From Iphione sp. A-MEVVRFRX5 (lineage: Eukaryota): a stretch of 64,000 nucleotides of DNA. The notes under the pieces are model-generated. The model did no database searches. It was not told the DNA's origin and saw only the letters and a list, made by a program, of their open reading frames with translations. The position numbers were made by a program, and so were the translations under genes. Positions 1-10,200 of the stretch are shown one piece after another. The DNA is taken from positions 12,338,001-12,402,000 of the forward strand of contig OZ320321.1 in NCBI GenBank assembly GCA_976226885.1, read 5' to 3'. Numbering within the stretch: the stretch's first letter is position 1; each line of letters opens with the position of its first letter.

Positions 1-15
1 TGCCTGCCACCGCGC

Positions 16-1494
16 CTATTCGCTGTTCCCGGACGGTGGCGTTTGTGCGTTTCCCTTCCGATCCGTTTTAGTGGTGTCCTTTAGTTTAGGGCAATCTTGC
101 TTAAAATGGTCTTCAGAGAAACAATTCCAGCAAACAAACTTTCCCTGAGCATTTCGCCCAGTACTCTTCACTTTACTTTTCTCTCGTCGCGGATTCAACT
201 TTGGCGGAACCATTGGCTTAGCTGGTTTTGGGGCCACCGTTGCGACGGGCTTCTGTATTTCTTCCTTCAACTTCTGTATCTGTTCTTTCAGACTGTCTTC
301 TGTAACAATGGTGCGGATTTTCTTCTTTTTAGCGTACATTTCTTCCATTTCAACCACACGGATTGCTTCTTCTAAGGTTTTAACGTCAGCACGCATACAC
401 TTCAATTCAAGTTTATCCCCCAGTGCTCGCTGAAAGAATGCCACAGAAAAAGAATCTCTGGTTTCACGGTCAACTGCAGGATAGGCCCTCCTCATTAACC
501 TACGGACTGTATCTGCAAGTTCCTTAGGCAGCTGGTCCTTTTCCCTTCTTAGAGTAGTCAATTCCTGAACTGCACGGACTTTCTCTCTCCCTCGTCCGAA
601 ACGGTCCTGGAGCGCTGCTACTCTCTTCTGGTACGTAGATGTCTCTGCCGAGGTCAAGTCGCCGTAGAAAGAACGGGCCGAACCTGTTAGGGACAGTGCT
701 AACATGCTCTTCTTCGTCGGGAGATCCCAATCGCTCACCCGAGCCCATTCTTCGAATTGTGAGTGCCATCCCTCCCAGTCTGCTTTGCCATCGTATCGTT
801 CCGGTTTGAGCAGGGTAATACGTGAGGGTCGTTTCGCTACAGCGGTCGTTACAGGCTTCGGTGATGATGAGACGCTCTTCTCTATCTTGCGACGCAATTT
901 CCGTCTGAGTTCCGACTTCCTGGCTTCGTCCGTCAGGGATTCGCTGCCAGATTCTTCCTCGGTCTCGCCGGAATTCTGCAAATCGTCTTCTTGCTTGATG
1001 CGACGGTTCCTCAGCCGATACTTGCTCCTGTGCTGAACAATGATAGGAGGAGTTCCTGGAAGACGCGGATCTATCCGAGGAGTCCGGTCGCTCTGACTCC
1101 CAACACTGGCATCGTCTCCATCCTCGTGTACAGGGGGGTCCTCTCCATCCTCGTGTACTGAATCCGGCGGCTGCCCATGCCCAGGGACAGGGTCGACATC
1201 CTCGTCTATTACCTCTATCACATCCTCGTCCTCGTCCTCGTCCTCGGACGGCTGGTCGTTCTCCACGTTCACGTCTATCGGTATCGGTTGAGGTTGTGGC
1301 CCTATCGGTATAGGCTGGTCGTTCTGCTGGTTGTTCTGCGGATTCTGGATAGGTTCGAACTGCGGGTCGAGTTCCGGTGGTAGATTCTGGTCGGGACCCT
1401 GAGGCGGCTGATCCTGGTTCCCATTCTGGTTCTGGGGAACTCCCTGGTCCTGGTCCTGGTCCGGGAGGATCCCGTTCGCTCCGTTGGCTGCCAT
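16..1494 (-). CDS. gag: Ty3/gypsy-type retrotransposon Gag (capsid-like region plus C-terminal CCHC zinc knuckle)
   Basis: Uninterrupted ORF with first ATG at 1494-1492 (the track starts one codon earlier at a GTG). Contains the gypsy-gag-like segment KPERYDGKADWEGWHSQFEEWARVSDW...KKSMLALSLTGSARSFY and a CX2CX4HX4C knuckle (CWNCFSEDHFKQDC). It lies just downstream of a PBS and LTR. Confidence 0.92.
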   Translation of the reverse strand: MAANGANGILPDQDQDQGVPQNQNGNQDQPPQGPDQNLPPELDPQFEPIQNPQNNQQNDQPIPIGPQPQPIPIDVNVENDQPSEDEDEDEDVIEVIDEDVDPVPGHGQPPDSVHEDGEDPPVHEDGDDASVGSQSDRTPRIDPRLPGTPPIIVQHRSKYRLRNRRIKQEDDLQNSGETEEESGSESLTDEARKSELRRKLRRKIEKSVSSSPKPVTTAVAKRPSRITLLKPERYDGKADWEGWHSQFEEWARVSDWDLPTKKSMLALSLTGSARSFYGDLTSAETSTYQKRVAALQDRFGRGREKVRAVQELTTLRREKDQLPKELADTVRRLMRRAYPAVDRETRDSFSVAFFQRALGDKLELKCMRADVKTLEEAIRVVEMEEMYAKKKKIRTIVTEDSLKEQIQKLKEEIQKPVATVAPKPAKPMVPPKLNPRREKSKVKSTGRNAQGKFVCWNCFSEDHFKQDCPKLKDTTKTDRKGNAQTPPSGNSE

Positions 1495-1562
1495 CACTCA
1501 TCTAGGCGTAGCTTCGTTTTTCTGTTATCAGGAATTCGAAAAGTATTTCTGTTTCTCTTCTT

Positions 1563-1585
1563 TTCGAATCCCACCGCTGCCACCA
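1563..1585 (-). other. Primer binding site complementary to the 3' end of tRNA-Leu
   Basis: The plus strand reads TTCGAATCCCACCGCTGCCACCA, matching the 3' end (with CCA) of metazoan tRNA-Leu(AAG/TAG) as I recall it. It is 3 nt from the LTR boundary. Confidence 0.9.
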
Positions 1586-1588
1586 AAA

Positions 1589-2023
1589 TGTAACGTGACT
1601 AACGTAGAGAGAAATGACAAGTCAACGGACCGAGCAAAAATAATCTTGAGAAAAAGTAGAATATAAGTTTCACTCCAATATACACTAATTCGTTGTGCAT
1701 GGAATGGTCTCTCTCGTATGTGCAAAGAGAAAGGGTCTGTTTATTCCAGAAAACATGGGTTTATATATGACAGTGTTACATAAGAGTTGCTAAAAATAGG
1801 ATGTCTAGACACCTGCATATGCGCAGCAAATAAACAGTCCGCGAAGTACCCCAACTACGCAGCACCACAATCCGTGAGATACCTCTACTACGCAATACCT
1901 CTATTGGTCCGGAAGTCGTCACGGATCGCACCCTATCCCGGATCGCGGATTCCGTTGCGGACTATTCTCACGGACCGACCTTCTCTCTAGCACTATACAC
2001 TCTTATGACATGCCTACGTTACA
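1589..2023 (-). mobile_element. 5' LTR (435 bp) of the gypsy element; the element continues beyond the left edge
   Basis: Perfect 8-bp terminal inverted repeats TGTAACGT...ACGTTACA. Minus-strand TATATAAA (1767-1760) is followed by AATAAA (1745-1740), and the PBS is adjacent. Confidence 0.9.
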
Positions 2024-2870: not shown

Positions 2871-4379
2871 CTGTGGTCAGACAGATGCGCAGCCACTGTC
2901 AGCAGTGTTCTGTCAGCAGGGTTCTTCACGTGACCAAGCCCCACTAGGTGGAGCTGCCTTCTGGAAAGTATAATCAATGTATTTGATGTATTCCGATTAT
3001 GTATCAGTGCTTATCCTATCTAAGACTGTATACTCACCATATATGTGTTAGCACTGAGTTAAGTAGTTGTCTTGAATCCAGGGTTTTGTTGTAGTAAACA
3101 TATGTATTCATGAAGAAGCTTTTTGGTAGTAGTAATATTATTATTGCTGACAAAGACATTAAATGGATATGCAGATGATGGACACGGTAATAGAAACCTT
3201 GAAACCTTGAAATGTGAAATTTCTATCGTCTGCGAATTTGCATCATAATGCAAATAAGGACTAAAACCTGACCAGTTATTAATCTAGATACGTCAACTTA
3301 ACATCATGAGTATTAGTATTACTCGTAACTAAGTATGATATACTGTCAATCCCTGCTCTTGTGTCATTGCAGTCATCGGTGGGAATAAAAATCTGAACCA
3401 TTGTACCATTATATAGTATGGATCATATTTAAAAATAAAAACGTTCTGAAATCTCTCAGATCTCTCAAATCTCAAATATCGGTGTGCATATATCATTTTA
3501 TGTACATGTACATAACTACAGCACCTGGCGAACCTAAACATCTATTCGCCACTATTATATGTCATAGACTGCCCCCCCCCCCCCCATTAGCGGTCCGTGA
3601 GCTGAGTGGTCCCCCGCTCAAGCAGGGACTCATTTCTCCCCTTTCCGATGCTTGCCTTCACAAACAAGCAAGAGTTTTTATCAGAGGAGGAAGCCGAGAA
3701 GCCACACTAAGCACGTGATCAAGCGAAAGTTGCCTCTCGATGAGGCCCCATTTCCTCCCACTTGGCGCGCGCCGGGCGGCCGGTCCCGCTGGTGCCTGAT
3801 GCGATTAGTGACGGGAATAATTTCATTTACGCGCCAATCAATGATGCTCACACATAAGCCTCCCGCTTCAGTTTGGCTAATCCTTTCTGCACAGGTGTCA
3901 TGGAGCTAATGCAACCTGGCTGCCAACGCTCTAATTCACCGGATCCCACATTCCTCTCTTGTTTTTTGTTTTTGTTGGTTTTTCGTCTACCAGGCCGCGC
4001 GCATCGTGGCTTTGGGCGTGTCTAGCTGTTCTGTCTCCTCCCCGGGATGTGGAATACTGTGTCTCCCCGGTGAATTCCATGAAAATTGGTTCTGATGTTT
4101 AAACGTCGGTCTTTTGGTAATAAACTACAATACCCATTAAGCTTTTTTTTCATCAGAAAGGAAAAAGATAACGTGGGTCTGAAAGCTACACAGACAAGTA
4201 GGCCTACTGTACTCTTATCGGTATGGATATACTGCGTATGTATACATATATATATAGAGAGAGATAATGGGTCTGTATATAAAACATAGACATGTGCGTT
4301 AGATATAGAAGAGCGCGGACAGCCGGGTACTTGGTGTTCACTCAGGCGGAGCCACTGAAAACAGAGGTGTCAAATAGTG

Positions 4380-5845
4380 CTACCACACCTATACAGAGAG
4401 AGANNNNNNNNNNNNNNNNNNNNNNNNNNNNNNNNNNNNNNNNNNNNNNNNNNNNNNNNNNNNNNNNNNNNNNNNNNNNNNNNNNNNNNNNNNNNNNNNN
4501 NNNNNNNNNNNNNNNNNNNNNNNNNNNNNNNNNNNNNNNNNNNNNNNNNNNNNNGAGAGACAGGGATAAGGACAAGGACAGAGACAGTGCTACTACATCT
4601 ATACAGAGACACAGAGAGACACACACATACACATAAACACCTATACATTTGTATGCATACACCCAAACACATATACCTGTACACATCCATACACATATCT
4701 ATGTATGATCGGTTCCAGTGAAAATAAAGTTCTTAACAAATACACATGTGAATTCACACAAACACCAAGACACACCTACACACATCCATACACACACCTA
4801 TACACACATCCATACACACATCTATACACTCAACTAAATACATGTCTACAGATGCATACACCTACACACTTTAATACACACTTCTAAACACACAAGTACA
4901 TAGATGTCTATAGACACATATACAGCTACACACATCCATACACATCTACACACTCAGCTACATTTATGTGTACAGGTGCATAAACCTACACACATGCATA
5001 CACACATCTATACACACAACTACACACATATCTATAGACACATATATCTACACACATCTAGACACACAACTACACACATATCTATGGAAAAATACACCTA
5101 CACTCACCAATACACACACCTATACACACAACTACACACATATCTATAGGTAAATACACATACACATGCCAATACACACATCTATACATACAACTACACT
5201 CATATCTATGGACAAATGCACCTACACACATCCATACACACATCCATACACACAACTACACACATATCTATAGGTAAATACACATACACATGCCAATACA
5301 CACATCTATACACACAACTACACACATATCTGTGGACAAATACACCTACACTCACCAATACACACATCTATACACACAACTACACACATATCTATAGGCA
5401 AATACACATACACATGCCAATGCACACATCCATACACATCTACACACTCAGCTTCATTTATGTGTTCAGGTGCATAAACCTACACACATGCATACACACA
5501 TCTATACACACAACTACACACATATCTATAGACACAGCTACACACATCTAGACACACAACTACACACATATCTATAGACACATATATCTACACACATCTA
5601 GACACACAACTACACACATATCAATGGAAAAATACACCTACACCCACCAATACACACATCTATACACACAACTACACACATATCTATAGGCAAATACACA
5701 TACACATGCCAATACACACATCTATACATACAACTACACTCGTATCTATGGACAAATGCACCTACACCCATCCATACACACATCTATACACACAACTCTA
5801 CACACATCTGTAAATATGTATGTGTAGTTGTAGGTATGGCTGTGT
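4380..5845. repeat. GA tract, N-gap (4404-4554) and long CA-rich compound satellite (ACACACATCTATACACACAACT-type)
   Basis: Visible directly; accounts for the H/T/Y-rich ORFs in the track. Confidence 0.9.
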
Positions 5846-6013
5846 GGGTTTTCAGTGGTTCCGCTTGACTGCCCAGGGTTGTGACGTAGCTCCGCGCTCT
5901 TTTATACATGTAGCATGAGTGTGTGCGTGAGGGGGGGGGGTTGCGAAACATAGCAAGGTTTGGATGGAGCCGAGTTAATCTAACAGAGGGACATTGAGTG
6001 TACTCATTCTTGA

Positions 6014-8619: not shown

Positions 8620-9444
8620 CTTAAGTCCTACGTCCCATCAGTCTTGGTCGTAGCCTTTATTTGCCACCTGAAGGCTAATATTGCCGCCATTCCCTGCGAT
8701 CGAGGCAGACACCGCTGCTGAGTCTTAGCGTTTGAAAGAGTGAGTTAATCTATGCCTGCTGTCATGTGACCGGAGTGAACAGAGCCAGCGTCCGCAGCCC
8801 CGCCTTCCACTTTCAAACTCCACACTAATCCACCAGAAGAGGCGTGTCATGGCCCAGGCATCAAACAGATCTGATGTCAGGGCCTTTAAAACACTGCAAA
8901 ACATCTGCAGATTGAATGAGGAGTGAAGGGAGCGATACAAATTGATGCGGTCCTCAATACATATATGCATGATGGCGAGAAATATGTATAGTATACCGTA
9001 TGCACAGAGATATCGAAGTGTAAGGTTATAAAAGCATTGTATTTCAATACGCCAGACTGAATACGATTCAATAGGAGATACTGGATGTATACATTATCTT
9101 TCAGTGGAAATACAAGTTGTTAAAAAAGTAGACGGCAGCGACCCCTGGTGTACTCCTCAGGTGGATCTCCTCGATCCACTGTTAACCGTTGGCTTCTCTT
9201 CCAATGGACCAATCGCCAGACATGTTACTACAAGAAATGTTCACTATTTGTGACGTCATAATAGGAAACCCACCAATGATACTGTGCTATTTTCAGACAT
9301 TGAAAAAATGGTAAACATATATGTAGTAACAGTGTGCCTGTCACTTCAGCAACTCCCTCCATTACTTTTACTCATCCCAGAGTTTCTCTGCACTAAAACG
9401 CAGCATGCTCCATGATTGGTGAATCTGTAAACCAGCTGATCTCT

Positions 9445-9592
9445 CACACAGACATGACAGAGCCCCAGGGCAGACACATAACAGAGTCCCAGGGCAGACA
9501 TACTGGAGTTCCAGGGCAGACACATAACAAAATCCCAGGGCAGACACATGACAGAGTTCCAGGGCAGACACATGATGGAGTTCCAGAGCAGC
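9445..9592. repeat. Minisatellite, about 24 bp (CAGGGCAGACACATGACAGAGTTC)
   Basis: About 6 tandem units visible. Confidence 0.85.
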
Positions 9593-9644
9593 TCCGGCAG
9601 ATTTCGTACTGGGAATCTATATGAAAAAGCTCGTTGTTTTTTTT

Positions 9645-10200
9645 TTTTAACATTAATTTGAACTTAATTTGCTTCTGACCACCATTGTATATTGTTAATG
9701 TCCACTTGCATATTGTTCAGGTCATCAGCTTTAGCTCTTCCATTGCTTTTAATTATAAGATCACCTCCATAATTATCCTCGTCAACTTACAGACCTTATA
9801 AATGTTATTAGCAAATATTAAAACCAACAGAGGGCCTAATAGAGACCCCTGAGGCACTCCATATGTACCTTCCGAAATTATGTTATTTGCTTTTGTCCTT
9901 TGACTACAATCTGACAAATAATTCACGAACCAATTTATGCTTCTTCCAATTCCCATTTCTGTCAGTCTACGTATTACAAACTTATTATAACCTTAATAGT
10001 TTAAAGGCTCTCCTATAATCGAAATAGGTAGCCAGAACAACCTTATCTTTATTCAAATGTTCATGTATATGCTCTTTCTATCTTTACGATATAATTAACT
10101 CCTGTCAACAGTTACTTTGTTCATCCCTTCCTTATCCATCCACGTACTTTGCTTTAGTATAACTCTCGCCTTCTTCACAGAGCATAATTCCACAAAGATT
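9645..10200 (-). pseudogene. Decayed non-LTR (CR1/L2-group) reverse transcriptase fragment
   Basis: Conceptual translation gives HLNKDKVVLATYFDYRRAF, WFVNYLSDCSQRTK and YGVPQGSLLGPLL, then DINNIQW, matching LINE RT motifs (DxxKAFD, GVPQGSxLGP). Frameshifts and stops are present. Confidence 0.8.

Follow-up and report, generated by a model that had tools for sequence, protein, structure and literature searches.

The window analysed here is a stretch of 64,000 nucleotides (G000:C19:12338001-12402000) in a genome of 1.18 Gb, and it was read together with the adjoining 8 kb beyond its edge (L001). The first positions of the window hold, on the minus strand, the end of a gag gene. At the edge there very probably lies the boundary between gag and pol of a young LTR retrotransposon of the Ty3/gypsy type; its pol is read in the -1 frame, and a minority of ribosomes would slip at G_GGA_AAC and make Gag-Pol. 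The genes and ends of the element are listed below, in window positions unless L001 is given.

1589..2023, minus strand: 5' LTR of 435 bp, paired with the 3' LTR at L001 1052-618
1563..1585, minus strand: 23-nt primer-binding site that can pair with the last bases of host tRNA-Leu(AAG), CCA included
524..1501, minus strand: overlapping ORF of 325 codons, -1 relative to gag, rich in Arg, Ser and Gly, without a transmembrane stretch
16..1494, minus strand: gag, 492 codons plus stop, with an acidic low-complexity N-terminus, a capsid-like helical region and one zinc knuckle
91..132, minus strand: CCHC zinc knuckle (nucleocapsid), a clear match in gag
1..54 and on to L001 4768, minus strand: start of pol in the -1 frame, encoding protease, reverse transcriptase, RNase H and integrase (PR-RT-RH-IN)
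L001, plus strand: antisense ORF of 297 codons, with a TATA near 3570, a predicted intron at 3726-3852 and exon 2 at 3853-4747
L001 3349-1796, minus strand: ORF3, 517 codons

The element was 9,406 bp long, and its two 435-bp LTRs differed at 1 base. A 4-bp target-site duplication bounded it and a polypurine tract was present; with the paired LTRs and the primer-binding site, these agree with a Ty3/gypsy element. Of three host loci fetched for the primer-binding site, ARAGORN called tRNA-Leu at two. Besides this reference we read 19 family copies, each 97.6-99.8% identical to the window element; in the 18 that were parsed, the LTR pairs were 0-2 bases apart. Full-length gag existed in 19/20 copies and full-length pol in 17/20. 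At least 777 copies with the junction flanks were present in the genome, and among the 777 with exact flanks the heptamer was exact in 761.

In 8/18 parsed copies (L003, L004, L006, L015, L016, L018, L019 and L020) the first two bases of the 5' target-site duplication matched the 3' copy, but its other two were AA, as at the end of the polypurine tract; this looks like a donor 5' overhang that was kept during gap repair. Two loci, L046 and L057, showed a second gag match after the element, at about 9,000-9,900, which suggests tandem or nested copies. A long imperfect CA-rich tandem repeat was also found next to an N stretch at about 4,570-5,870 of the window.

The capsid region of gag matched Pfam Retrotrans_gag, Ty3_capsid and PNMA, all below cut-off, and the top three fold matches of its low-confidence structure model were Arc and PNMA2 capsids (E 0.4-1.1). 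In pol, RVP, RVT_1, RT_RNaseH and rve were matched above the Pfam cut-offs, and the best matches of the protein were about 45-59% identical, most of the named ones being animal. The pol frame is open for 1,100 codons past a stop at 70-68, with protease, reverse transcriptase, RNase H and integrase in gypsy order. This stop bounds a gag/pol overlap of 49 nt, with the heptamer inside. The first Met of the pol frame is residue 231, which lies 3' of the protease, and none precedes the protease active site; pol therefore cannot start by itself.

The elements of the junction itself are as follows.

49..55, minus strand: slippery heptamer G_GGA_AAC, in gag phase
41..48, minus strand: spacer of 8 nt, with its length kept in 35/36 aligned rows and its sequence variable
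31..40, minus strand: 5' arm of the stem, with a 7-bp core at 40-34, a non-conserved U33 and an extension at 32-31
6..16, minus strand: 3' arm of the stem, with the core at 12-6 and the extension at 16-15
17..21, minus strand: loop strand of a candidate pseudoknot helix 2, with its partner at L001 7992-7988 (bases 9-13 past the window edge)

The original prediction, made from the window alone, had proposed a complete -1 frameshift signal at this place, and all of it was read again as described: GGGAAAC at minus-strand 55-49 in the gag phase K-G-N, the 8-nt spacer at 48-41, a 19-nt loop that contains the gag stop TAG (18-16), and a -1 frame that reads KRTNATVREQRIGAVAG and stays open to the edge and well beyond. 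The expected continuation of that frame into PR-RT-RH-IN was found, and neither a pol in the 0 or +1 frame nor an early closure was seen. An X_XXY_YYZ heptamer in the 0-frame phase, a spacer in the range of 5-9 nt and an overlapping -1 ORF without its own start agree with the canonical -1 arrangement. The further proposal that Gag-Pol is made by -1 frameshifting is supported at the sequence level by pol lying in the -1 frame with no Met before the protease.

The junction was identical in 20/20 family copies, a weak observation given that 19 of them were chosen as best matches to that region. Young copies say little, so older relatives were sought within the same genome, with two patterns: one with the heptamer (42 matches, 20 fetched) and one without it, on the protease side (27 matches, all fetched, 7 of them common to the heptamer-pattern set). 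The relatives fell into two subfamilies, A2 with a pol identity of about 91% and B with one of about 66%, besides decayed lineages. Among the 27 loci from the heptamer-free pattern, G_GGA_AAY was exact in 17, had one mismatch in 7 and two mismatches in 1, and the junction was lost in 2; all 25 recognisable sites were in phase with the protease Asp codon. Alignment A1 contained 36 of the 41 loci. L038, L039 and L040 were left out as unlike or accidental matches, L043 because it has lost the junction by deletion, and L054 for a tandem duplication. Its rows are kin from one genome, forming about three clades plus singletons on a poorly supported tree, and many are decayed.

Two heptamer positions are silent in gag. 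Position 4 was A in 36/36 rows of A1, including 18/18 rows from the heptamer-free pattern, and position 1 was G in 31/36 rows (13/18 in the heptamer-free-pattern rows), in codons for Leu, Lys, Pro, Gln or Glu. In the 3' arm, past the gag stop, both silent positions favoured G, in 30/36 and 31/36 rows, compared with 14-18/36 for the most frequent base at each of four third positions nearby. An unpaired third position right after the stem was as conserved (A in 32/36), and the 5' arm codes in both frames, which limits the conservation argument. At four-fold sites of pol, subfamilies A and B were only 30-36% identical, which is close to saturation, and G was kept in 4-9 of 30-32. The silent-site conservation at the heptamer and the stem points to a constraint at the RNA level.

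The description of the downstream stem was refined. It had been described as 8 bp, with arms at 40-33 and 13-6; the 7 Watson-Crick pairs and one U-G pair are present in the window, but the U-G pair was formed in just 7 of 35 distinct rows and the conserved core is 7 bp. Each of the seven core pairs was formed in 27-32 of these rows. Folding predicted an extension by two further pairs, between 32-31 and 15-16, which are formed in 29 and 31 rows; the energy of the predicted fold is -17.1 kcal/mol. The arrangement at the junction is beyond chance, though the hairpin alone is not: its stability was unexceptional against shuffled sequences, both in 60 nt (z -0.46, 63/200 as stable) and in 50 nt (z -1.39, 19/200). 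The covariation looked for among the copies did not exceed shuffle level for any version of the stem (8-bp stem 45/500, extended stem 247/500, a further version 168/500), and RNAalifold favoured another, weak register. No relatives were found among viral contigs with the pol query or among metagenome contigs with the gag query, and because of this the covariation rests on one genome. We regard the 7-bp stem with its 2-bp extension as the most likely stimulator, with reasonable confidence.

Two alternatives bear on how pol is expressed. The stimulator might be an H-type pseudoknot, in which the stem plus extension forms helix 1 and the loop bases 21-17 pair with Tyr-Leu codons past the window as helix 2. 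Its geometry would be canonical, with no bases between the helices and a third loop of 13 nt; the same register yields long helices in some other lineages, L032, L056 and L053 (8-13 bp, with 4-22/200 shuffles as good), and its share of paired cells is 65%, falling to 29-46% if the strands are slid. But this register was picked from these very sequences, its columns are explained by conserved protein codons, and in this subfamily helix 2 consists of four A-U pairs plus one G-U, for which 187/200 shuffles were as good; its covariation was also at shuffle level, 398/500 reaching its score. We consider the pseudoknot possible but rather unlikely. The second alternative is that pol is read from a spliced or separately initiated RNA, with heptamer and stem kept for protein or packaging reasons. 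Splicing is apparently used elsewhere in the element, in the predicted antisense intron. At the junction, however, the 12 AGs from position 97 downward lack a pyrimidine-rich tract (pyrimidine fraction 0.25-0.5), and the two AGs with higher values (0.6-0.65) come before the stop of the pol frame. With no acceptor-like site in the overlap, splicing is an unlikely source of a pol message, and the lack of a Met before the protease and the conserved silent bases of the heptamer speak against either kind of separate RNA, which makes this explanation very improbable.

For the preferred frameshift reading, the established tandem-slippage model supplies the steps: both tRNAs on the heptamer re-pair one base back. 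Here the stem-loop 8 nt downstream would pause the ribosome on G_GGA_AAC, and in a minority of ribosomes the tRNAs for Gly and Asn, decoding GGA AAC, would shift their pairing by one base in the 5' direction. The slipped ribosome would read pol, bypassing the gag stop in the loop, and produce Gag-Pol; the fusion would read G-N-R-T-N, and the K of the -1 frame would be absent from the product. We infer the slippage, the pausing, the RNA fold and the resulting Gag to Gag-Pol ratio from frames, domains, spacing and conservation that were read directly.

Such a signal has many parallels. According to PMC5009743, pol in the -1 frame is common among animal LTR elements (28/51 in a 2003 survey cited there) and G_GGA_AAC is among the most shift-prone heptamers. 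The element resembles these animal elements in its -1 overlap, canonical heptamer and PR-RT-RH-IN order, and differs in having three further conserved ORFs, one of them overprinted on gag. PMC11299033 and PMC5009743 also describe GGGAAAC in PEG10, PNMA3, PNMA5 and Rtl3, where it likewise lies at the gag-pol junction and has a structure 5-8 nt behind it. These four are mammalian genes that were domesticated, whereas the present element is mobile; PEG10 has a proven pseudoknot, while here it is only a candidate. The frameshift would thus be ordinary in kind, adding a well-supported case to a mechanism that is common.

The antisense ORF and ORF3 occupy the interval from pol to the 3' LTR. For the antisense ORF, identity was 87% with A2 and dropped to 32-35% with B. 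Its predicted intron of 127 nt has a donor and an acceptor placed within the start codon, and this holds for A, A2 and B (4/4 loci read); all 20 family copies had the TATA and the donor, and 18 had the acceptor motif. Without splicing, the antisense AUG is followed directly by a stop codon. In subfamily B, the splice would build a near-perfect Kozak context. The antisense protein had no Pfam or PDB match and its fold model reached pLDDT 32. Its best Atlas matches were all nucleoporin or Mediator beta-propeller clusters at low recognition, with the Nup133 N-terminal propellers at the top (0.92, 189 features, recognition 1396). That the protein may be a nuclear-pore mimic is a weak and unsupported lead.

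ORF3 contains two C2H2-like fingers, with Pfam C2H2 matches below cut-off, and a conserved C-terminal block. It was 25-31% identical in B and strongly variable among B copies; in L021, L026, L042 and L048 it differed widely despite close protease genes. Judged from these sequences, the variation suggests fast evolution or exchange of the gene. Word searches with a single sequence or a profile found no homologues of ORF3, one distant relative with the same layout was found among representatives (P0121, E 1e-7), and its Atlas matches were unnamed clusters at low recognition. Neither ORF3 nor the antisense protein could be placed in a family. A simple word comparison of the LTR with the region upstream of ORF3 showed no common palindromes, TATA-like words being the only ones to reach 10 nt.

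An env gene was considered for these ORFs and rejected. The maximum 19-residue hydropathy was 0.1-1.2 in the three extra ORFs, and neither ORF3 nor the antisense ORF matched an env family, so the element is not errantivirus-like in this respect. Grande, RIRE2, Retand and Boty also carry extra ORFs, sense as well as antisense, in the interval from pol to the 3' LTR (PMC7264820, PMC11963269), and there too they are kept in most copies. Those lineages differ in being from plants and fungi, and Retand carries a TRP28 domain. In the present element there is no Pfam match, the start codon of the antisense ORF is interrupted by a predicted intron, and ORF3 is zinc-finger-like and lacks a transmembrane stretch.

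The third extra ORF lies inside gag. It covers the 5' two-thirds of gag, and its AUG (1501, weak context) is located 7 nt upstream of the gag AUG (1494, strong context). A stop in this frame requires a T before a gag codon starting with AA, AG or GA, and 0 of the 108 possible stops was used. Elsewhere T was frequent: at 56/213 other third positions in the same span, and at stop-type places in 15/61 cases in the rest of gag and 89/302 in pol. When codons were resampled, none of 5,000 controls was open as long and none stayed open past codon 110. The N-terminus of gag in subfamily B could not be aligned to that of A. The upstream AUG in the overlapping frame existed in 8/8 B copies examined, and in three B copies 0/72, 4/81 and 1/83 stop places were used. 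The frame ended at the same codon in 7 of the 9 copies of A, A2 and B that could be anchored (4 of 13 could not), and an eighth ended three codons earlier. Between A and A2, silent gag sites were identical in 74/85 codons inside the overlap and 39/80 outside it (p 1e-7).

A different explanation is that the frame is no protein gene: codon bias alone could have left it open, or it could serve only in regulation, as an upstream ORF that lowers initiation at gag. Early breaks occur in 5/20 young copies, most of which have an intact gag, and in the majority of decayed B copies; two early stop positions are each common to two B copies; A and B show no extra silent-site constraint in the overlap, and the high identity of A and A2 there could reflect recombination. 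Against this stand the complete avoidance of stops, which no resampled control approached in length, the few stops used in B, the stop position common to A, A2 and B, and the excess of identical silent sites between A and A2 inside the overlap. We consider the non-coding explanation unlikely. It is probable that the overlapping frame encodes a protein, which would be translated from the weak-context upstream AUG, with gag reached by leaky scanning. With 16% Arg, the product would likely be a basic, disordered RNA-binding accessory factor, judging by composition only.

Overprinted accessory genes read by leaky scanning occur in viruses, as polerovirus P0/P1 and tymovirus p69. These are alike in layout: shortly before the main AUG, another AUG opens a long ORF in a different frame. 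They differ in being RNA viruses and not retroelements. An accessory gene overprinted on gag was not found in our literature search; Repbase, Dfam or supplements may already list the family or its extra ORFs.

On balance, we favour the reading that the element represents a complex five-gene Ty3/gypsy lineage. Three proteins would come from one genomic RNA: the overprinted basic protein, begun at the upstream AUG, Gag through leaky scanning, and Gag-Pol through the -1 frameshift. An internal divergent promoter region would drive a spliced antisense gene, which stays off until splicing has joined the two parts of its start codon, as well as a zinc-finger protein that evolves fast.

The overlapping frame would carry more weight than the frameshift, as it implies that a retrotransposon can hide an accessory gene of 325 residues within gag, unseen by repeat annotation. 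The stop-avoidance test is applicable to any repeat library. Since hundreds of near-identical young copies are present, all three extra products should be detectable where host RNA or protein can be obtained. It is also implied that gypsy elements without an envelope can match complex retroviruses in gene richness.
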